A stretch of 64,000 nt of DNA from Vicinamibacterales bacterium (GTDB lineage Bacteria > Acidobacteriota > Vicinamibacteria > Vicinamibacterales > UBA2999). The DNA lies in the NCBI GenBank assembly GCA_035492455.1, contig DATJJE010000005.1:16961-80960 (forward strand). Direction: 5' to 3'. The translations under genes were made by a program, and so were the position numbers. The notes beneath the pieces were generated by a model. That model did no database searches. It worked only from the letters and a program-made list of their open reading frames with translations, and was not told the DNA's origin. Shown in pieces: positions 8,635-31,422 of the stretch. Position 1 is the stretch's first letter; the number at the start of each line of letters is the position of its first letter.

Positions 8635-9667
8635 TGAAGTAGAGAATGGCCGCGGCGGTCGCAATCAGGTTCAGCACCGCTGCCGGAAACAGCCACTTCC
8701 ATCCGAACTGCATCAGCTGGTCGTAGCGATAGCGCGGCACCGTCCAGCGCACCCAGATGTAGGTGAAGAGGATGAATCCGACCTTCGCGAGGAAGAACAC
8801 CCACCCGAATCCATAGCGGTCGAGGATGGCGATGCCGTGCCACCCACCCAGATACAGGTCCGTCGCCACCGCGGCCATCGTCGTCATGTTGATGTATTCG
8901 GCCTGCGGGAACAGCGCGAACCGGACGGAGCTGTACTCGGTGTTGTAGCCGGCGACGAGCTCCTGCTCGGCTTCCGGGAAATCAAACGGCGCGCGATTCG
9001 TCTCGGCAACGCCTGCGATTACGTAGATGAGGAAGCCGACCGGCTGCAGAAAGACGTACCACTTCGGGATGAATCCGAACCAGGAGCCGTTCTGCGCGTC
9101 GACAACTTCACGCAGCGACAGCGAACCTGCAAGCATGATGACCGACGCGAGCGCCGTTGCATACGCAAGCTCGTAGCTGATCATCTGCGCCGATGAGCGA
9201 AGGCCGCCCAGCAGCGAATACTTGCTGTTCGACGACCATCCGGCGAGAACGATGCCGTAAACGCCCATCGAGGTAATCGCGAAAACGACGAGCACCGCGA
9301 CGTTCACATCGGCAACGCCCAGCTTCACCGGCGTATCGAGCAGCCCGAAAAGCGTCGTCTCCGCGCCCCAGGGTACCGCTGCAAACGCGGCAAATGCGGC
9401 GGTGACGGAAATGATCGGCGCGAGCGTGAACAGCCACTTGTCCGCGTCTTTCGGCCGCAGCTCCTCTTTGAACAGCAGCTTGACGATGTCGGCGAGCGGC
9501 TGCAGCAGACCCCACGGCCCGACGAGATACGGACCGTAGCGCTGCTGCATGAAGCCCATGACCTTCCGCTCGGCGAGCACCAGCAGCGCCGACGCATTGA
9601 TCAACATGAAGAACGTCAGACCGATGATGCCGAGCTGAATGGCAAAGCGGAGCGTCGCCTGATCCAT
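8627..9667 (-). CDS. nuoH: NADH-quinone oxidoreductase subunit H
   Basis: 346 aa (LAERKVMGFMQQRYGPYLVGPWGLLQPLAD, NRAPFDFPEAEQELVAGY). Its start shares one base with the nuoF stop (TGATG). Confidence 0.94.
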   Translation of the reverse strand: MDQATLRFAIQLGIIGLTFFMLINASALLVLAERKVMGFMQQRYGPYLVGPWGLLQPLADIVKLLFKEELRPKDADKWLFTLAPIISVTAAFAAFAAVPWGAETTLFGLLDTPVKLGVADVNVAVLVVFAITSMGVYGIVLAGWSSNSKYSLLGGLRSSAQMISYELAYATALASVIMLAGSLSLREVVDAQNGSWFGFIPKWYVFLQPVGFLIYVIAGVAETNRAPFDFPEAEQELVAGYNTEYSSVRFALFPQAEYINMTTMAAVATDLYLGGWHGIAILDRYGFGWVFFLAKVGFILFTYIWVRWTVPRYRYDQLMQFGWKWLFPAAVLNLIATAAAILYFNV

Positions 9668-22274: not shown

Positions 22275-23065
22275 TGCCCGAGGGCGACACTATCTTCCGT
22301 GCGGCACGCACGCTCAACGCAGCGCTGGCGGGCCGCACGGTCACCCGCTTTGAATCCGTTTTCGCACACGTGGCGCGCGTTAACGACGGGGCGCCACTCA
22401 GCGGGCGGAGCATCGAACGCGTGGAAGCGCGTGGCAAGCACCTGCTCATCTGGTTCTCCGGCGATCTCGTCCTGCGCACGCACATGCGGATGCACGGGTC
22501 GTGGCACCTGTATCGCCCGGGTGAGCGGTGGCAGCGGTCGCGCGCCGACATGCGTATCGTGATCGGAACGCCCGAGTACGAAGCGGTCGCTTTCAGCGTG
22601 CCGGTCGCGGCGCTGACGACGCGTCGCGAGCTCGAACGTGCGGCGGCGGTGCGAGAACTCGGACCAGACATCCTGTCACCCGGCTTTGATGCTGATGCAG
22701 TCGTGGAACGGATGCAGCAAATGCCAGATGTCGAAGTCGCGGACGCGCTCCTGGATCAAACCGTGGTCGCGGGAATCGGCAATATCTTCAAGTCGGAGTC
22801 GCTCTTCGCCTCGCGCGTCGATCCGTTTGCGCGTGTCGGTAAGCTCGCACGCGGCGACCTCGTCCGCGTCGTTGAAGCCGCGCATCGGCTGATGCAGGCG
22901 AGCGCCACCGGCCGGCCTGCAGCCGGATTCGCGGTGTACGGTCGCAGCGGCCGTCCGTGCCGCCGCTGCGGCACACTGATCTCGCGACGCAAGCAAGGGG
23001 AGCACGCGCGCATTACGTATTGGTGCGACCGATGCCAGCGTCGAATGCCCGCACCCGCCGGATGA
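22274..23065 (+). CDS. nei: Fpg/Nei-family DNA glycosylase (endonuclease VIII-like)
   Basis: N-terminal MPEGDT (catalytic Pro2/Glu3), an H2TH region (AGIGNIFKSESLF) and a C-terminal zinc finger (CRRCGTLI...YWCDRCQ). The GTG start overlaps the lhr TAG as TAGTG. Confidence 0.9.
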   Translation: MPEGDTIFRAARTLNAALAGRTVTRFESVFAHVARVNDGAPLSGRSIERVEARGKHLLIWFSGDLVLRTHMRMHGSWHLYRPGERWQRSRADMRIVIGTPEYEAVAFSVPVAALTTRRELERAAAVRELGPDILSPGFDADAVVERMQQMPDVEVADALLDQTVVAGIGNIFKSESLFASRVDPFARVGKLARGDLVRVVEAAHRLMQASATGRPAAGFAVYGRSGRPCRRCGTLISRRKQGEHARITYWCDRCQRRMPAPAG

Positions 23066-23555
23066 AATCGGCACGCGCAGCCGGATCGTCGAGCGCTTCT
23101 TCGTCGATCATCGGAAGTCCTGGGATGGCCGTGGCGAGCTGCTCCGCAAACAGGCCGCGCCCGTTTGGCGTCGGACTCGCATCGTCGTAATGCACGAGCA
23201 CGCCGGTGGGACCGCAGCTCGGTGACCGCGCCTTCAGCACAAATCCGCTGACGCGTTCGGCGGCCAGAGCGGCGACACGATCGCGCGCCCAGCGATCCAT
23301 CCGTCCGGTCCAGTCTTCTCTCGAATCCACGCCCTGCAGGCGTACGCGTTCGCGCTCCGACGCCACGGCGTGGATGGTCGCCACCAGCTGAATCGGCTCG
23401 CGCGGCACACCCATCCCGACTTCAACTTCAGGACAAACCGGTAGCCATTCGACGTCCTCACCGAGCGCAATCACCGCGTTGCTGCGCTTGTTCGTCCCGT
23501 CGTAGCGCACATCATCGCCGAGCAGGCAGCGTGAGATACCTACGCGTGGCTTCAC
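23013..23555 (-). CDS. DUF523 (YbbK/TudS-like) protein
   Basis: MKPRVGISRCLLGDDVRYDGTNKRS...PVCPEVEVGMGVPREP...SPSCG. The GTG start overlaps the gvpK TGA as GTGA. Confidence 0.8.
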   Translation of the reverse strand: MKPRVGISRCLLGDDVRYDGTNKRSNAVIALGEDVEWLPVCPEVEVGMGVPREPIQLVATIHAVASERERVRLQGVDSREDWTGRMDRWARDRVAALAAERVSGFVLKARSPSCGPTGVLVHYDDASPTPNGRGLFAEQLATAIPGLPMIDEEALDDPAARADFIRRVRAFDAGIGRTNT

Positions 23556-23971
23556 ATCAATTTTCCGACGGGACCGAGATCGAGATTGAGGTCTTCCGGG
23601 AGAATGCCGAATTTCGCCGCGATGTCGACGACAGTCTCTTCGAGCTTCATCAGCGCGCGGCCGATTTCCTCGATCTGCTGGCTGGTGAGCGTGCCAGCCT
23701 CCATGCGGCGAATCGCCTGTCGCTCCAGCAGCTGGCGGATGAATTCAACGAGAGTCAACACCAATTGAGCCACCGATCTCTGCACGTCGTCAGCATTCGC
23801 ATTCCATCTCAGCGGAGACGACGCCGAGCGGCTGGCGCGTTCGAGCTCGCGGCGGAGATCGTCGAGTTTGCCGACCTCGCTGATGGTGAGGGCGCCGCGG
23901 CGTGCGACGACCTTCTTACCGCGTGTCGTCCGTGGCGCGGACCGCCTGCTTCTACGAGCTTTCTTTGCCAT
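23552..23971 (-). CDS. gvpK: Gas vesicle protein K
   Basis: LVLTLVEFIRQLLERQAIRRMEAGTLTSQQIEEIGRALMKLEETV...DLNLDLGPVGKLM is the typical GvpK core. It has a basic N-terminal tail. Confidence 0.9.
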   Translation of the reverse strand: MAKKARRSRRSAPRTTRGKKVVARRGALTISEVGKLDDLRRELERASRSASSPLRWNANADDVQRSVAQLVLTLVEFIRQLLERQAIRRMEAGTLTSQQIEEIGRALMKLEETVVDIAAKFGILPEDLNLDLGPVGKLM

Positions 23972-24664
23972 TCACCACGTATCCGCGAATGCGTACGGTG
24001 GCCAGGGTCCCGTCACGACCAGACGCAGGGCCTGTTCGTCTGCGGCACGCTCCACGATGTCGCGGTATCTCTCGGCCGCGCCGCGCGGGACGAGATGGTT
24101 GATCGTTACGACACCGCCGCGCTTCTCAACCCGCTCGTCCTTGACGTAGGTGCGGATGGCCGGACGGATACGGTCGAATGCGGGCACCGCGCGCGCCGCT
24201 GCAGCATCTGCCACCTTTTGCCGCAAATACTGCGTACCTTGAGTCGCCCCGTACCCGAGTCGGAGTCGCGTACGACTCGTCACCGTACTCTGACTCGGGA
24301 ACGCGGCATCACCCGACTCTGACTCGAGAAGGCGGACGGTCATCTGGGCGCGGCCGCGAACGGTGGTAAGCCGGTGACGGAGGGCGGCGCGGCGCGATCG
24401 GATGACGACCGTGAGCTCGTCGGTGTCGGCGACAGTCGTCGCGTACCTCGCAGGCAGAGTCGCGGACGTCTTTGCCGCAATCGCTTCCACAGCCGCGGCA
24501 TACCGCCGCAGATTCCTGACGCTCGGCGCAGGCGCGCGCCGCAGTTCGCCCACGATGGCGCCGATGCGATCAATCGTGATCACCTTGAGACGCTCCCCTC
24601 CGACGCCGGGAAGATTCAGATGTGCCGGCGGCGGGCTGACGAGCGCATAGACGCAGAGAATCAC
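23972..24664 (-). CDS. gvpL: Gas vesicle protein GvpL/GvpF family
   Basis: 230 aa. N-terminus ILCVYALV..., C-terminus VVTGPWPPYAFAD (GvpF/L signature). It abuts gvpK and overlaps gvpJ by 4 nt. Confidence 0.85.
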   Translation of the reverse strand: MILCVYALVSPPPAHLNLPGVGGERLKVITIDRIGAIVGELRRAPAPSVRNLRRYAAAVEAIAAKTSATLPARYATTVADTDELTVVIRSRRAALRHRLTTVRGRAQMTVRLLESESGDAAFPSQSTVTSRTRLRLGYGATQGTQYLRQKVADAAAARAVPAFDRIRPAIRTYVKDERVEKRGGVVTINHLVPRGAAERYRDIVERAADEQALRLVVTGPWPPYAFADTW

Positions 24665-24984
24665 GCCCGCGTCCGGCGCGGCATTCGCGCCGCCAGCGCT
24701 CGACGTTTGCGCAGCTCATGACGCGCATGATGCCGCTCGATGAAATCCGGATTCTCGCCCGGCAGCACGCGATCCGCAGCGGAGAGCAGCAGCGACAGCC
24801 GGGCATAAACGAGCTCGATCTGCGCCAGGCCAAGAGTTAAATCTCCAGTGAGCACCACGCCTTTGTTCAACAGGTTGTCGACGATGTCGAGCAGCGAGGC
24901 GTCCTCGGTACCGAGGATCTCCTCTGCTTCGGTCGGACGGTGTGGCCGCGGTTGTTTTGGCGGAACTCGCCTCGGCGGAATCAT
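24661..24984 (-). CDS. gvpJ: Gas vesicle protein GvpJ (GvpA/J/M family)
   Basis: SLLDIVDNLLNKGVVLTGDLTLGLAQIELVYARLSLLLSAAD. The ATG at 24984 forms an ATGA overlap with the upstream gvpF/L stop. The alternative start at 25008 is less likely. Confidence 0.85.
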   Translation of the reverse strand: MIPPRRVPPKQPRPHRPTEAEEILGTEDASLLDIVDNLLNKGVVLTGDLTLGLAQIELVYARLSLLLSAADRVLPGENPDFIERHHARHELRKRRALAARMPRRTRA

Positions 24985-25766
24985 TGGATGAAGTTGTACG
25001 CCGGCCATGGACCGGTGAGCGATACGTCGACGCCGGAACCGCGCAGCTCACGCGTGCGCTGACGAATGGCGGATTTAAACGCTCCGCTCTTCGCAATGGC
25101 CACGAGAAACGCCGCGTCAAGCAGCAGGCGCGAGCCTGGTGCTGCGCGCTCGAGGCTGGTGCGACGCCGCGATGCGGCCGCCTGTTTCCCCATCACTTTG
25201 TACAACCGATCGGCAATCTTGCGCGCTTCCGCCAGCCGAGTGCGATTCACATCCAGGATGTCGCGCTTGCGAGCGAGGTAGGCAGCGCCGGATCGCGGGC
25301 TTGTAACGCCCGCGCTGCCGGCTGCTCGCTTTGTGGCTGTGCGTCGCGCACCGTTCGGGTCCGCGAACGTCAGCCTCAATCCGAACTCGACCTTCTTCTC
25401 GATCCGCTTGACGATGCGGTTGATCCGCGTGCGATCTGCTCGCACGTGCTCGACGACGCGCGCATCAGACGTGAAGAGTGTGAACAACTGCATGGGCAGA
25501 AGTGCCGGCAACGAGAGAAATGCTTCGATGACGCGCTCGTGGGCGATGGCGCGTGGACCCACCCAATCGAAATTCTGCAGCCCGCCTGCCAGCGCCTCCT
25601 CGCCGTACTCAGATGCGCGAACGCTCTGCACGACGGCCCAGAGTCCCTGATCCACGTCGACGGCACGCAAATCGCTGCCGCCCGGCATGCCGTCGGTGAT
25701 TCCGCGCAGGCTCGGAGGTCTCGTGCTCCTGACCAGACAGAAGACGTAGCTGAGCGCTCCGCTCAC
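24981..25766 (-). CDS. Gas vesicle protein GvpF/GvpL family (second paralogue)
   Basis: 261 aa: SYVFCLVRS..., AHERVIEAF, C-terminal LTGPWPAYNFIQ. Confidence 0.85.
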   Translation of the reverse strand: MSGALSYVFCLVRSTRPPSLRGITDGMPGGSDLRAVDVDQGLWAVVQSVRASEYGEEALAGGLQNFDWVGPRAIAHERVIEAFLSLPALLPMQLFTLFTSDARVVEHVRADRTRINRIVKRIEKKVEFGLRLTFADPNGARRTATKRAAGSAGVTSPRSGAAYLARKRDILDVNRTRLAEARKIADRLYKVMGKQAAASRRRTSLERAAPGSRLLLDAAFLVAIAKSGAFKSAIRQRTRELRGSGVDVSLTGPWPAYNFIQ

Positions 25767-25767
25767 G

Positions 25768-26328
25768 TCAGCGGATCTTACCCGCCTTCGCTCGCGTGGC
25801 CTTGCGACGCGAGCTTCGGCGCGGCTTCGGCGTAATCTTTCTCGTTCGTGTGGTTGTGGTGGGAAGCGGTAAGGCGGTTTCCTCGAGCGTCTCGGCGCTG
25901 GTGGGCTCGATGTCGATCACCTGCTCGGTCTGGCCGTGCGCGGTGCCGACGATACCGGGATGCGATTCGGGGCGTTCGACGATCGTGGTATGCGGCGCCT
26001 GTGCGGGCTCGTAGAAATCGCCCGATACGCTCGCCTCGATCTGGAAACGGCTGTCTTCGTCGGCTTCGAGCGGCTGGCCAGCGCCGAACTCGAGCGCGCC
26101 GGAACCGCCTTCGCGGCGCTGCTTGATTTCGCGGATGCGCGCCAGCAGATCCCGTTCGATCTCGCGGAACTCGTCGTCGCTGATCTCGCCCATTTCGCGC
26201 TGCATCTCCGCGGCGAGCAGCTGCTCGCGCAGCGCCGTATCGTCGTTCATCTCGGCTTCCGCCGCGGTGACGACAGTCTTCAACGCCCATGAGATGCCTT
26301 TGATCATGAGCGAGTCCAAAAGAAACAT
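25768..26328 (-). CDS. gvpG: Gas vesicle protein G
   Basis: MFLLDSLMIKGISWALKTVVTAAEAEMNDDTALREQLLAAEMQREMGEISDDEFREIERDLLARIREIK. The track N-terminus (MEFGSWSLEL) is translation of the heptamer repeat, so the start is set at 26328. Confidence 0.85.
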   Translation of the reverse strand: MFLLDSLMIKGISWALKTVVTAAEAEMNDDTALREQLLAAEMQREMGEISDDEFREIERDLLARIREIKQRREGGSGALEFGAGQPLEADEDSRFQIEASVSGDFYEPAQAPHTTIVERPESHPGIVGTAHGQTEQVIDIEPTSAETLEETALPLPTTTTRTRKITPKPRRSSRRKATRAKAGKIR

Positions 26329-26391
26329 AAGTTCCAAGCTCCAGGATCCAAATTCCAAACGTTTTTGAGCTTGGGACTTGGATCTTGGATC
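26329..26391. repeat. Heptamer-periodic inverted repeat filling the whole gvpF-gvpG intergenic gap
   Basis: TTCCAAG CTCCAGG ATCCAAA TTCCAAA (26332-26359), CGTTTTTGAG, then CTTGGGA CTTGGAT CTTGGAT (26370-26390). It uses the same unit as the 37784-37900 element. Confidence 0.85.
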
Positions 26392-27423
26392 CTAATGTTG
26401 CCCTGCTCGTTCCAGCTTGAGGCGAATGTTGACGAAGTTATACGGAGGCCACGGCCCTGTGTACTTGAACGTCAACTTGTCGAAGGTCGACGCGATTTCC
26501 TTGATCCTCCGGTCGAACGCCGGTTCCTGGTCGCGCTGCACGAGGAACGCAGCGTTCATGATCATCTTGTCGCCGATGGCGCGGTTGACGCGCGATGCAA
26601 CCGACACGTCGCGCAGTCGCTGCAGGAACTCGGCGACGTAACGCTCCGACCGTTGCTGCAGTGCGCCGTCGATCAAGCGGCCGTACTGCATTCGGGCGAA
26701 ATACGTGGACCCCTTCTGCGAGGAAATCTCGGTCTTGAGGCGATGAATGTCCTCGTCCTCCTGCTCGATCTGCCGGACGATCTCGTCGCGATCCCACAAC
26801 ACTTTCAGACCGAACTCGAGCTTGTCCTGCATCTTCGACAGGACGTCCGCAAACGCATCGTAGGCCGATCGCAGCAGCTCCACGATGTCCTCGCGCGTCT
26901 TGAAGATAGTGCCGAAGGACATCGGGATAACCGTGTGGTCGCGCATCACCGTCTCGTTGACGCGCTCGTGCGCGAGCACGTTTTCGCGCGTGGAATCGAG
27001 CGGTGCCAGCGGGATGTCGGAGACAACCGCCGCCATGTCCTTGAAGGTGATGGTGTAAACCTCGGGCCATTGCTCGTCCATGCCGATGGCCCCGAATTTC
27101 AGCGGCTGGCTCGCGCGGATGATGCAGTAGACGTAACGCCCACGGCCCGCCGACCGATCTACGTCGGGAAGGCTCGGCTTCGGCGCTCGTTCGACGACGC
27201 GCTCGACGCGGGTTTCGGTGCCGCGCACCTCGGTCTCGTGCGTGACGCGCGTGACGGCCGCGTCCTCGTCTCTCCTGCGGGCGACAGGCTTGGCCGCGCG
27301 ACCCGACGCCGCAGCGCCGTTGCCTCGCTTCAGCGTGCGCGTCGCTGTGGCCGCGCGCGGACGCGCGGACGCGGGGGGCGTGGCGGACTTGCGTGCGCTG
27401 GATTTGTTCTGAGCCTTCGCCAT
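26392..27423 (-). CDS. gvpF: Gas vesicle protein GvpF/GvpL family with ~100-aa basic N-terminal extension
   Basis: RYVYCIIRAS...AHERVNETVM...LEFGLKVLWD...KYTGPWPPYNFV. The N-terminus is rich in K/R/A/P. Confidence 0.87.
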   Translation of the reverse strand: MAKAQNKSSARKSATPPASARPRAATATRTLKRGNGAAASGRAAKPVARRRDEDAAVTRVTHETEVRGTETRVERVVERAPKPSLPDVDRSAGRGRYVYCIIRASQPLKFGAIGMDEQWPEVYTITFKDMAAVVSDIPLAPLDSTRENVLAHERVNETVMRDHTVIPMSFGTIFKTREDIVELLRSAYDAFADVLSKMQDKLEFGLKVLWDRDEIVRQIEQEDEDIHRLKTEISSQKGSTYFARMQYGRLIDGALQQRSERYVAEFLQRLRDVSVASRVNRAIGDKMIMNAAFLVQRDQEPAFDRRIKEIASTFDKLTFKYTGPWPPYNFVNIRLKLERAGQH

Positions 27424-27437
27424 ATGCGTACCTTATG

Positions 27438-27830
27438 TCAGGCTTTCTTGACGGTGTCGAGCATGCGCCTCACCTCGACCACAAGATCATCGGGCAGGCA
27501 TGGTTTGGTGACAAACGAGTCGCAGCCGGCCTTGCGCGCCCCTTCGGACGCGCCGGCCAGCGCATGACCGGTGAGCGCCACGACCGGAATATGTTTCGTC
27601 CGATCGTCGGCCTTCAACACTCGGGTCGCCTCCCACCCATCCATCCCGGGCAGCGACAGGTCCATGAGGATCAAATCCGGCCGCAGCGAGAACGCCTGCG
27701 CCACGGCCTCGTTGCCATTGCGGGCCTCCGCCACGCGGAAGCCGGAAAACTGGAGGTACTCCGCGTACATTTCCCGGGCATCCTGGTAGTCGTCGACGAC
27801 AAGAATCAACGGAGAGTCGGGTTGCGTCAT
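27438..27830 (-). CDS. Single-domain response regulator (CheY-like receiver)
   Basis: 130 aa: [15 protein letters not shown]...[16 protein letters not shown]...PVVALTGHA...KP. No output domain. Confidence 0.9.
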
Positions 27831-30004
27831 TGTTCTGCTTCCGCGGGGATAGTGAGCGTAAACGTTGACCCCTTCCCCATTTGGCTTTCAAGCGTAATGC
27901 GCCCACCCAGGGCGGTAGCCAGGCGCCGGCAAATCGCCAAACCAAGACCTGTGCCGCCATATGGGCGAGAGGGCGAGTCGTCCACCTGGCGGAAGTCTTC
28001 GAAGATCTTTTCGTGGTTCTCGGGAGAGATACCGATGCCGGTATCGACAACCGAGACGTTCGCCGTGCGATCGACGCTGTCGTAACCGACGGTAATTCGG
28101 ATGCCGCCTTCGTGCGTGAACTTCAACGCGTTGCTGAGCAGATTGACGATGATCTGCTTGACCTTCTGCCGGTCGCTGTAGACCATCGGCAGATCCGGAC
28201 ACAGCATCGGCGATACCGTCAGCTTTGAGCGCGCGATCACCGGGTCGAGCTCCGTCATCACTTCCGGCACCAGCTCGTTCAGGTTGAACTCGCTGAGCTG
28301 CATCGGCATCTTGCCCGCCTCGATGCGGGTGATGTCGAGAATCTCGTTGATGATCGTCATCAAATGACGACCGTTGCTGTCGATGCGCTGCAGCTGCCGT
28401 TTCACCGCCGGCAGCAGATCGCCGGCGACGCCCTGTAGCAGCATGTGCGTGTAGCCCAGAATCGCGTTCAGCGGCGTCCTGAACTCGTGCGACATGTTGG
28501 CGAGGAACTGCGACTTCAGGCGCGAGGCCTGTTCGAGCTCGATCGCCTGGCGTCGCAGCAGTTCGTTCTGCGTCGCCAGCTCGGCAGTCGCTGCCTGCAC
28601 GCGCGCCTGCAGCTCGTCTGACGCAGTCTTCAACTGCTCGTACAGCTTCGCGCGCTCGAGGGCCTCGCGGCGATCGTGCAGGATCGTCACGACGGCGGTC
28701 AGCTCGCCGGTTTCGGTGAGCACCTTGCCCGCGATCGCTTCAACCGGAATCGGCTCGTTCGTCGCCGGATTCATCAGGCTGATCTCACCGCGGCGGATTT
28801 CGCCGGGGCCGGTTTCGCCGAGCAGCAGGCCGGAAATGAAAGACGAGAAGTGCGCATCGTTGGCCTGCACCGTGCGCGCCGCCATTTCCGTCGCTCCGGG
28901 CGGCAGCGTGAAGAGATCTTCGGAAGGTGCGTTCATCAGCACGGTGGCACCCGTGGAATCGGTGACGATGATCGGGTCGGCAACCGAGTCGATGATCAGG
29001 TTCAGACGATCGCGTTCCGCGCGCACCGCGGCTTCGGCCACGCGCAGCTTCTGATAGTTCTCTTCGATCTGCTCCGTCGCCCGGCGCAGGTCCGTGATGT
29101 TGCGCAGGACCGACACAACGCCGGTGCCTTCCCGTGGGTCTTCAACGGTTGTCGAGAGCACTTCGAACAGCAGGTCGGACCCGTCGCTCGGATCCACGAG
29201 CAGCAGCTCGCGCGCTTCCTGCGACCCTTCCACCGCGGAGCGCGACAACGCCGCGGAAAACAGCATGTTGTTCAATTCGACGGCGCGGCGCCGGCCTTCG
29301 CTTTCCTCTTCGCTCGCGGCAAACAGCTTTTCCGCGCGTGCGTTGGCCACGATCAGCCGGCCTTCGATGTCGGTCAGCATGATCGGGTCGGTCACGGCAT
29401 TGATGATGGTGAAAAAGAGCGTCCGCTCGCGGCGCAGCTTGCGCGCTTCTTCGGCCAGGCTGCCGCGCCCGCGCACCTGATCGATCTTCTGGCCGAGCAC
29501 GGCGACGACCCAGTTGATGTCAGGCGTCAGCGCCGGCGTGCGCAGCAGCAGCAGACCGGGCGCGATCTCATCGCGCTCCGGCATGGTGCCGCCGCGAATG
29601 CCGAGTGGCACGGCGGTGAACGGGCCGCGTCCGAGCGGCAGTGAGGGCGGATGCGAGGCGTGGCCGTTGGGCCGGTACGATTTGATGTGAACGGGAGCGT
29701 GTGCCTCGAGTGCCGCGATCATTGGATCGTAGTTATCCGAGAGCGGCCACGAGAAGAGCTCGATGTCATCGCCGATTGTGCCGTGGGCGGCGATGCCCAC
29801 CAGCATGTTCGATTCGACGTCGACGGCCAGACACGCCGACTGCTTCACGCCGGAATGCCGCGCCAGCCATTCCAGGCTGACCTGCGCGCACCGCACGATG
29901 TCTTCGTGATGCGCGAGATAATGCTCGAGCAGCTCGAGGCGTGCTGCATAGCTGACGGCAGTGCCGGCTGTCCGAGTAAAGGTCCGCGCCTGAAGCGAGC
30001 TCAT
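27827..30004 (-). CDS. Cytoplasmic multi-sensor histidine kinase (GAF-like N-terminus, two PAS-like regions, HisKA, HATPase_c)
   Basis: 725 aa with the H-box [20 protein letters not shown]-box LLSNALKFT and G-boxes DTGIGI / [10 protein letters not shown] saw no hydrophobic TM segment. It overlaps the RR gene by 4 nt. Confidence 0.9.
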
Positions 30005-30056
30005 TTCCTACCCTGTGGTTCGATCCATCGCGGCGTCACGGTAGCGACGCGCGCGC

Positions 30057-30395
30057 CTACTGCCGGGTACGTCGTCGAGTTCCCGCGGGTGCGCGCGTGC
30101 CGGCGGTAGGAGCACCCTCGAGCTGCGCGCGCAGCGACACGTTCTCCGCCGCCAGTTCATCGTACGGACGAGGCGCCTCGATGGTTGGCCGTGCAGCCGA
30201 TGCCGCAGCGCCGACCGCCTCTGAGTACTTCAGGTATGTGTCGATCGAGGCCACGACAACGCGCGCTTCGACGGTGATCAAATCGATCCCGACGAGTGAC
30301 ACGCGCACCCAGGCATCGATGACGATCCCCTTGTCGAGGACGCGATCGAGGACGTCAATAAGACTTGTTCCGCCTGCAGCTCGTTCGACGGCCAT
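30057..30395 (-). CDS. gvpA: Gas vesicle structural protein GvpA (canonical core plus C-terminal extension)
   Basis: [52 protein letters not shown] matches the canonical GvpA core almost residue for residue. A tail of about 45 aa follows. Confidence 0.93.
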
Positions 30396-30407: not shown

Positions 30408-30761
30408 TTAGTCGGACGTGTCTTTGCCGGTCGCGCGTCCGCGCCGGCCGGAAGCGCGCGTCAACGACGCGACCTTCCGCTCGAGCAGCCGCAGCTGCTC
30501 ACGCAGTTCAAGGTTTTCCCGGAGCACCTGCTCGCGTCCCGGCGAGAGGTGTCGGTCGTACTTCCACCAGTCCAGACCGATCTCCTCTGCCTTATCGATC
30601 GAGCAGATCATCAGGCGGATGCGGATCGTGAGGAGCTCGACTTCGGCAAGCGACACCTTGATGTCGCCCGCGACGACGAGACCTTTGTCAAGCACGCGAT
30701 CGAGAATGTCGACCAGCCCGGCATTGCCGCGGGTCGGACTCCCTGTCAGGTCGGTCGGCAT
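30408..30761 (-). CDS. GvpA/GvpJ-family protein (actinomycete-GvpA-like) with coiled-coil/basic tail
   Basis: [55 protein letters not shown]. First gene of the operon. Confidence 0.88.
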   Translation of the reverse strand: MPTDLTGSPTRGNAGLVDILDRVLDKGLVVAGDIKVSLAEVELLTIRIRLMICSIDKAEEIGLDWWKYDRHLSPGREQVLRENLELREQLRLLERKVASLTRASGRRGRATGKDTSD

Positions 30762-30792
30762 GCAGAAAGTGTGATCGGCTGGCCTTTCGTCG

Positions 30793-30815
30793 CGCGATCG
30801 CGGGCATGATGCCCG
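30793..30815. promoter_or_regulatory. Two adjacent palindromes upstream of the gvp operon (candidate operator)
   Basis: CGCGATCGCG (30793-30802) overlaps CGGGCATgATGCCCG (30801-30815). They lie 32-54 nt upstream of the first gvp start codon. Confidence 0.3.
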
Positions 30816-30918
30816 ACACGAAGCTCACGCGAACCGACGAAGTATAGATCAAGCCCTTCTTCTAAACCGACTCAACCGTAGTGGAATTTGGAGGCTATGC
30901 GCTACCATGTGAAGCCCG

Positions 30919-31422
30919 ATGGCGACGCAATGCTCTTTCGATATCACTTCGAATGTCGACCTTCAGGAAGTAGACAACGCACTCAACCAGGCTCGAAAGG
31001 AAGTCGCCCAGCGGTATGACTTCAAGGGCGCGAAGGCCTCGATCGAATTCGACACGAAAGAGTCGAAGCTCATCCTCATTGCCGACGACGATTTCAAGCT
31101 CAACGCGCTCTGGGAAATCATTTCGACCCGCCTCGTCCGGCGCAACGTCCCTGTTAAGAATCTGAGCCGCGGCACGGCGCAGCCTGCCGCCAACAGCACC
31201 GTCCGCCAGGAGATCGCGCTGCAGCAGGGCATCCCCACCGAAAAGGCGCGCGACATTGTCAAGTTCATCAAAGACTCGAAGATGAAGAAGGTGCAGGCGT
31301 CGATTCAGGGCGACCAGCTGCGCATCACGTCGCCGTCGCGAGACGACCTGCAGGAAGCCATGCGGCTGCTGCGCGAGCAGGACTTCGGCGTTGCACTGCA
31401 GTTCGGCAACTACCGCGGGTAA
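30919..31422 (+). CDS. yajQ: YajQ-family nucleotide (c-di-GMP)-binding protein (UPF0234)
   Basis: SFDITSNVDLQEVDNALNQARKEVAQRYDFKGAKASIEF...LQFGNYR is the hallmark YajQ sequence. Confidence 0.9.
   Translation: MATQCSFDITSNVDLQEVDNALNQARKEVAQRYDFKGAKASIEFDTKESKLILIADDDFKLNALWEIISTRLVRRNVPVKNLSRGTAQPAANSTVRQEIALQQGIPTEKARDIVKFIKDSKMKKVQASIQGDQLRITSPSRDDLQEAMRLLREQDFGVALQFGNYRG

Follow-up and report, generated by a model that had tools for sequence, protein, structure and literature searches.

A histidine kinase and a receiver-only response regulator within a gas-vesicle gene cluster of Vicinamibacterales: a probable dedicated regulator

Gas vesicles, which are flotation organelles, are being engineered as acoustic and magnetic resonance imaging reporters, and it is in only a few organisms that we understand how they are naturally regulated. 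What, then, is a two-component system doing between the structural gene gvpA and the assembly gene gvpF? This question is raised by a 64-kb stretch of contig DATJJE010000005.1 (hereafter the window; 63% G+C) from a Vicinamibacterales genome of 4.9 Mb that is 94% complete, in which a sensor histidine kinase (HK) and a receiver-only response regulator (RR) are encoded amid gas-vesicle genes. From the conservation, expression and architecture of these two genes, we consider it likely that the pair is a dedicated regulator of gas-vesicle production that was recruited long ago by one gvp lineage.

Position, conservation and expression of the pair

Eleven minus-strand genes stand in series in the window, overlapping or separated by very short spacers, with a gvpJ-like gene first. 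The second, gvpA (30057..30395), encodes 112 aa with a C-terminal extension and belongs to the NCBIfam GvpA subfamily NF006874 (114 bits versus a cut-off of 100). It is followed by a 52-nt spacer (30005..30056) that carries an AGG..GGA ribosome-binding-like motif and in which no terminator-like hairpin is predicted, and then by the HK gene (27827..30004; 725 aa), delimited by its open reading frame (ORF), Pfam and structure models. The HK stop and the start of the RR gene (27438..27830; 130 aa; Pfam Response_reg) overlap by 4 nt (ATGA at 27827-30), and the RR stop codon (TGA, 27438-40) is separated by 14 nt (cataaggtacgcat) from the ATG at 27423 of a gvpF/L gene (26392..27423; GvpF1, 343 aa; Pfam GvpL_GvpF, E = 7e-76 over aa 95-332). 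The coordinates and spacings that the original prediction gave for HK, RR and gvpF are exact, and ORFs and Pfam/NCBIfam gene assignments agree in placing the pair between gvpA and gvpF. The HK and RR genes are translationally coupled and lie inside the gvp operon.

This arrangement is shared by relatives. A kinase-centred scan covered 185,579 species genomes and brought up 119 relatives; in each of the 80 loci that were kept the order is gvpJ-gvpA-HK-RR-gvpF-gvpG...gvpK, with gvpF directly after the RR gene in most of them. These loci come from Vicinamibacterales, Methylomirabilota/Rokubacteria and a single Binatia genome, with kinase identities between 91% and 53%. To offset the kinase bias of this sample, the converse test was centred on GvpK in 401 evenly drawn Vicinamibacterales genomes, with the kinase scored as present when its sensor part matched at E<=1e-15. 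GvpK was found in 110 genomes and the kinase sensor part in 114, with both in 104 (that is, 104 of the 110 GvpK-positive genomes); in 96 the two lie on the same contig, 1.9-7.7 kb apart. The proposed synteny with gvp genes is hence borne out from both directions.

All sixteen discordant genomes, carrying either GvpK or the kinase sensor alone, were inspected. They comprise five contig ends, four Serratia-like clusters, one partial cluster, two members of genus g5 and four remnants; the six GvpK-positive genomes without the kinase are contig ends or hold a different cluster type. In genus g5, the order is rearranged to RR-J-A-HK-F, which puts the RR gene upstream of gvpJ/gvpA. The four remnant genomes, G178 (L091), G216 (L092), G266 (L093) and G287 (L094), are without gvpK. 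The kinase of G216 and G287 is reduced to its C-terminal half (aa ~310-725) adjoining the receiver, while in G178 and G266 a near-full kinase and receiver adjoin gvpA fragments, which looks like cluster decay in progress. Across the 401 genomes, there was neither a window-type cluster without HK/RR on an adequate contig nor an intact HK/RR pair outside a gvp cluster, so that within this order neither of the two arrangements named beforehand as telling against a functional association, a gvp cluster without the pair or the pair without gvp genes, was encountered. The pair is lost or decayed where the gvp genes are lost.

The sequences have also diverged together. Correlating distance matrices over 48 loci gave r = 0.95 for HK-RR and r = 0.82 for HK-GvpF1, with values of 0.57-0.69 among Gvp proteins. 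In its slow pace of evolution, the RR matches GvpF. The pair is old and specific to the gvp genes and no recent passenger. About a quarter of the sampled Vicinamibacterales carry it; it occurs also in Methylomirabilota and Binatia, and has travelled with gvp genes through more than 100 species. The protein collection contains more than 4,000 relatives of the HK/RR family; most of them stem from JGI and ENA metagenome data, and they carry generic names only.

At the level of the phylum, the picture is more varied. Among eleven GvpK-positive Acidobacteriota from outside Vicinamibacterales, a single one (G626) has the full arrangement. G575 shows K-J-A-HK-F with a kinase that lacks the GAF domain and with no RR; three genomes of family f50 carry F-G-ArsA-F-K-J-A without kinase or receiver (GvpF1 58% and GvpA 81% identical); G501 (family f65) has F-K-J-A (GvpA 83%) with no kinase other than a distant one on the opposite strand; and the other five hold Serratia-like clusters. 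A gvp cluster lacking the pair, which the original prediction took as a sign of recent and unrelated insertion, is thus absent within the order and present in family f50, and the pair is an acquisition, though an old one, of one sub-lineage. Since the homologous f50 gvp set does without it, the pair would be dispensable for assembly, which fits a regulatory rather than a structural role.

Twenty DNA runs from soil or rhizosphere contain near-identical copies of the cluster, and RNA contigs from soil metatranscriptomes match it as well. Several spans in gvpJ and gvpA are covered at 100% identity to the window in X25, X26 and X33, including contigs over the gvpJ-like gene at 30518-30726 and 30628-30865. 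X25 and X28 cover parts of the kinase gene (28885-29035 and 29378-29645), and X25 part of gvpF (26412-26581), likewise at 100%. As for junctions, an X25 contig identical to the window runs across the gvpA/HK spacer (29951-30117), and the HK/RR overlap is spanned by an adapter-flanked fragment from X32 (27789-27923; one mismatch) and by a 95% identical contig from X27 (27775-27965), which stems from a relative. Together with the tight spacing and the lack of a predicted terminator, these contigs across the gvpA/HK and HK/RR junctions support the co-transcription that had been proposed, and HK and RR are very probably co-transcribed with the gvp genes.

Sensor and receiver

The kinase had been described as a soluble protein with a GAF-like region, two PAS-like regions, HisKA and HATPase_c, and on this Pfam, AlphaFold2, Foldseek and hydropathy agree. 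Pfam places PAS1 at aa 197-308 (29081-29416), PAS2 at aa ~336-455 (28640-28999; E = 1.6e-5 when the region is scanned alone), HisKA at aa 497-564 (28313-28516; E = 2e-19) and HATPase_c at aa 611-722 (27839-28174; E = 3e-30), all on the minus strand. The catalytic boxes are intact (H-box H506 in HEFRTP, N-box 621, G1 654, G2 684), and no transmembrane segment was detected in the kinase, the maximal 19-residue Kyte-Doolittle mean being 1.27. The N-terminal region (aa 31-190; 29435-29914, minus strand) has no match in the Pfam scan. Its AlphaFold2 model (195 residues; predicted local distance difference test score (pLDDT) 83.6) adopts a GAF fold, and the top Foldseek matches in the PDB are all GAF domains (Lcd1, PtsP, DevS; E = 2e-6; template-modelling (TM) scores 0.48-0.58); by this model, the region is a GAF domain at the level of fold only. 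The PAS1-PAS2 model (pLDDT 86.9) consists of two PAS cores with a 37-residue helix between them, and its best PDB matches (Foldseek E 2e-13 to 1e-8) are the tandem PAS sensors of DosP, a Brucella LOV-PAS kinase and FixL.

Across an alignment of 70 orthologues, the mean pairwise distance falls from 0.62 in GAF to 0.34 in HATPase, 0.30 in PAS2, 0.25 in PAS1 and 0.18 in HisKA. The PAS domains are therefore among the slowest-evolving parts of the kinase, with only HisKA slower, and their long invariant motifs include DPxxLTD, EGRRRAV..NNML and DSVADPI.VTD. That these sensors evolve more slowly than the ATPase domain suggests a conserved ligand or protein partner. His385 (codon 28850-28852) is invariant and lies within the F-alpha helix of PAS2, at the position that we take to match that of the haem-binding histidine of FixL, and Cys39 (29888-29890) and Cys58 (29831-29833) are nearly invariant in the otherwise fast-evolving GAF domain; all three are candidate cofactor or redox sites. 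In fold and domain order the sensor resembles PAS-A/PAS-B of FixL, the Brucella LOV-PAS-HK and the PAS-PAS module of DosP, yet it is only 13-17% identical to them and has no recognisable cofactor motif, so that a bound haem or flavin would be a conjecture by analogy. When the PAS-PAS alignment was run as a profile against PDB sequences, nothing beyond weak PAS matches of the WalK type emerged, and in an NCBIfam scan of HK and RR the only matches, to unrelated kinases and response regulators, fell below the cut-off.

Response_reg is the sole Pfam domain of the 130-aa RR. Its residues D12, D13, D57, T87 and K109 are invariant among 79 orthologues, with D57 as the phospho-acceptor. These orthologues measure 125-152 aa, except for one ORF with a doubtful start call, and no output domain was detected in any of them; the absence of a DNA-binding domain noted for the window protein extends to all 79. 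Between them, HK and RR hold every catalytic residue of a classical two-component system and would form a cognate pair. The closest relatives of the RR by sequence among solved structures are PleD REC1 and DivK (E = 1e-22). Like these Caulobacter proteins, the RR is a stand-alone REC domain with a complete active site; DivK allosterically controls another kinase, and the likeness is one of sequence and domain make-up, the genomic context being entirely different. A role as flagellar CheY was ruled out, as no FliM match was found in the 94%-complete host genome while the control searches were positive.

Routes of control

How might such a pair regulate gas vesicles? We favour, over a switch acting on assembly, an indirect transcriptional route with feedback that resembles Gvr, the regulatory system of Serratia gas vesicles, and hold this route to be somewhat short of evenly probable. 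The cytoplasmic GAF-PAS-PAS sensor would read an intracellular cue, the kinase would autophosphorylate at H506, and the phosphate would pass to D57 of the receiver. A receiver without an output domain must act through protein contact, and receiver and kinase would signal to a DNA-binding partner, encoded apart from them, that in turn sets the level of gvp transcription. A feedback loop would arise, since the gvp transcript also yields HK and RR.

The sister clade of the window's cluster, a second Vicinamibacterales clade with a kinase ~58% identical and a tandem ArsA-like ATPase between gvpG and gvpF, argues for this route. In 24 of its loci (among L028, L029-L047, L063 and L071-L079), the gvpJ-gvpA-HK-RR operon is preceded, at -82 to -114, by a canonical sigma-54 promoter, TGGCAY-N5-RTTGC (in L028 ~90 nt before the gvpJ-like start, near 9150), against a chance expectation that we estimate at ~0.01 per locus. 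Sigma-54 promoters require an enhancer-binding protein (EBP), and at one locus an NtrC-type REC-Sigma54_activat-HTH_8 regulator is encoded directly upstream of the gvp operon and on the same strand (L051:1129-2673, plus strand), with a near-consensus GG-N10-GC motif between regulator and operon. L051 is the only locus with a complete triad like GvrA, GvrB and GvrC, and Serratia-type clusters likewise combine EBP, HK and RR. Transcription of gvpA1 in Serratia sp. ATCC 39006 depends on each of GvrA, GvrB and GvrC (PMC4982088, PMC6617781). The original prediction had reasoned that an RR without DNA-binding domain implies post-transcriptional control; given the 24 sigma-54 loci and the REC-sigma54-HTH regulator at L051, this does not follow.

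In the window's own clade, we infer a promoter role for the element GATCTATACT (30841..30850, minus strand), which contains a -10-like TATACT, stands ~85 nt ahead of the start codon of the first gvp gene and recurs at the same relative place in ~26 loci of the clade; it has a sigma-70-like look. A CTATACT version is found in ~14 Methylomirabilota/Binatia loci and is preceded by a GGGAAAA-N-TTTTC palindrome in most of those from Methylomirabilota. Downstream of GATCTATACT, and together with it within 30810-30850 (minus strand), the segment GGTTCGCGTGAGCTTCGTG holds a TTCGCG/TTCGTG direct repeat with 11-nt spacing, the first half of which is kept throughout the clade; an operator or an element of a leader RNA are possible roles. 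A yajQ-family gene (30919-31422, plus strand) is divergent from the gvp operon and has a 157-nt intergenic region in common with it, a neighbourhood that is retained in most close-clade loci, at times with inserts (a TonB receptor, a small secreted protein and a HAMP hybrid kinase).

Several observations count against a Gvr-like scheme or against the regulatory role as such. The window shows no sigma-54 motif upstream of the operon and no GAFTGA protein anywhere in its 64 kb, and neither a DNA-binding regulator nor an Hpt protein is encoded near the operon; with no linked activator or Hpt and a sigma-70-like promoter, the transcriptional route is without its last component in the window's clade. 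The sole EBP that recurs near the sister-clade clusters, 5-8 kb upstream, has no REC domain. The metatranscriptome contigs are unstranded, DNA carry-over is possible, and among the soil metatranscriptome matches no RNA contig crosses the RR/gvpF junction. Finally, we know of no cultured carrier, and the link between the pair and gas vesicles rests on genes and RNA contigs.

Two candidate partners were rejected. The REC-less sigma-54 activator has a 78% orthologue on another contig of the host genome, whose gvp promoter is not of the sigma-54 type, so that this EBP is probably not gvp-specific. A nearby phosphorelay was discarded, the only Hpt domains (two proteins) being encoded on other contigs of the host genome.

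Alternatively, the RR could switch assembly directly, with transcription uninvolved: in its phosphorylated or unphosphorylated form, it would bind a Gvp assembly protein, for which the adjoining GvpF/L, GvpG or the ArsA-like ATPase of the sister clusters are candidates, and license or block vesicle nucleation or growth. We regard this as possible, if rather unlikely. The RR is REC-only in 79 of 79 orthologues, 79 of the 80 loci have no DNA-binding regulator within the cluster, the RR gene adjoins gvpF in nearly all loci, and DivK and PleD REC1 work by protein contact. A further hint comes from GvpF1, which in the window carries a basic N-terminal tail of ~95 aa (27139-27423): in clusters with HK/RR from Vicinamibacterales and Rokubacteria, a Lys/Arg/Ala-rich tail of 60-95 aa is usual, while the leader is just 9-13 aa in the GvpF of the HK/RR-free f50 clusters (L103, L111, L102). 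G626, however, has HK/RR and a short GvpF leader, and in view of this exception the correlation is only partial and the tail was dropped as a target of the RR. In genus g5, moreover, the RR gene is distant from gvpF, G575 has the kinase and no RR, and GvrC, the REC-only analogue in Serratia, has its effect on transcription (PMC4982088).

A bolder form of the same idea, which strikes us as improbable, would make the pair a self-contained checkpoint on organelle building that involves no DNA-binding step. The unusually conserved PAS-PAS module would sense the condition of the vesicle's own components or a physical correlate of it, such as unassembled GvpA/GvpJ, or oxygen or redox state via a cofactor on the invariant His385, and a DivK-like phosphorylated RR would bind GvpF/L, GvpG or the ArsA-like ATPase and thereby license or halt vesicle growth.

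Less probable still, and in our view quite unlikely, is that the kinase targets an unlinked DNA-binding response regulator and that the small RR drains or buffers phosphate, sharpening the response. The NtrC-type regulator at L051, which has a REC domain of its own beside the small RR, would be a classical branched-pathway layout, and the host genome encodes many response regulators elsewhere in addition to its two Hpt-containing proteins. Against such a sink stand the tight co-divergence of HK and RR, the slow evolution of the RR and its retention in all intact clusters but one, an unusually strong constraint for a sink. That the two genes are passengers inserted by chance and serving an unrelated cellular function seems very improbable, for although related f50 clusters lack the pair and it is not an orthologue of GvrB/GvrC, nearly all GvpK-positive Vicinamibacterales carry the kinase, window-type clusters all have the pair, intact copies of which were not seen elsewhere in the 401 genomes, the remnants show truncated kinases or fragmentary gvp genes, HK and GvpF diverge together, and the host has no FliM for a CheY-like protein to serve.

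Cluster variants and known gas-vesicle systems

The remaining genes of the window's operon, again on the minus strand, are the gvpJ-like first gene (30408..30761; 117 aa; Pfam Gas_vesicle, E = 5e-17; best NCBIfam match GvpJ), gvpG (within 25768-26358; Pfam GvpG), a second gvpF/L (24981-25766; Pfam GvpL_GvpF), a gvpJ/M-like gene (24661-25008; Pfam Gas_vesicle), a third gvpF/L (23972-24664; Pfam GvpL_GvpF), gvpK (23552-23971; Pfam GvpK) and an eleventh ORF (23013-23555). The host cluster is without GvpN, GvpC and CDC48-like ATPase, and the window's clade is also without ArsA. Most distant clusters carry a tandem ArsA/GET3-like ATPase of 600-700 aa between gvpG and the second gvpF (e.g. L028:13942-16050, L052:15343-17355, L067:7144-8961), as do Serratia-type clusters; the window's clade lacks it, and a tandem copy is not present anywhere in the host genome. 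Between gvpF and gvpG, Rokubacteria clusters encode a further membrane hybrid kinase, DUF4118-HisKA-HATPase-REC (L052:13512-15026; also L048, L054, L056-L058 and L065). Besides, a few Vicinamibacterales have a Serratia-like cluster instead, with CDC48-like ATPase, GvpN and their own PAS kinase or REC-only protein (components at L085:2500-4068, L087:1134-1568 and L087:8624-10456), so that both cluster types exist within one order.

Among described gas-vesicle clusters, those of Streptomyces (gvpO-A-F-G-J-L-S-K) are also compact, lack gvpN and gvpC, encode a C-terminally extended GvpA and come from soil (PMC9501494). They have no kinase or receiver, whereas the window cluster has no gvpO. A literature search on gas vesicles with Acidobacteria or Rokubacteria returned nothing relevant, and we found no paper describing the HK/RR family. 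The pair marks a large lineage of compact gvp clusters with a putative built-in switch, a description of which we did not find, and with its 7-kb cassette the question why non-aquatic soil bacteria build and regulate gas vesicles becomes testable.

The closest parallel is Gvr. In the published gvr operon, gvrB and gvrC are positioned before gvpA (PMC4982088), and from gene position we deduced their domain make-up in Serratia-type clusters that a gvpA-centred genome scan found in Shewanella salipaludis, Desulfomonile, Burkholderiales and Terriglobia; a gvpA search of plasmids gave gvp clusters without gvr genes. The order in Serratia-type clusters is REC-sigma54 activator, CDC48-like ATPase, gvpF, gvpF, PAS kinase, REC-only RR and gvpA-gvpN-..., with a soluble PAS kinase of ~500 aa and an overlapping REC-only RR of 122-135 aa just before gvpA. 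The view that a CheY-like regulator in mid-operon sets the present locus apart from gvrA-C must accordingly be given up: the design of a PAS kinase and a receiver-only RR beside gvpA is already known as GvrB/GvrC.

As in Gvr, the regulators here lie within the gvp cluster, as a soluble PAS kinase and an overlapping REC-only RR near gvpA, and the sister clade shares with Gvr the sigma-54 promoter and, at L051, an NtrC-type regulator, the type to which GvrA belongs (PMC4982088). However, when GvrB-like kinases were compared with the host genome, the gvp kinase ranked only 14-34 at 25-26% identity, and with GvrC-like RRs the gvp RR ranked 15-18 or was absent; judged by these rankings, the pair is not orthologous to GvrB/GvrC. 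It follows gvpA in the structural operon, while the Gvr pair ends a separate operon led by gvrA; its kinase has an extra N-terminal GAF domain relative to GvrB-like kinases; the cluster is without the GvpN, GvpC and CDC48-like ATPase of the Serratia type; and in the window's clade, both the sigma-54 promoter and a linked EBP are missing. It looks as if modules of one kind had been recruited independently, in which case gvp clusters would have gained a PAS kinase and a receiver-only RR on at least two occasions. In summary, the pair is probably an unstudied control switch for gas vesicles that is analogous to, and not descended from, GvrB/GvrC, and it departs from Gvr in its protein family, in lying after gvpA and in usually having no NtrC-type partner linked to it.

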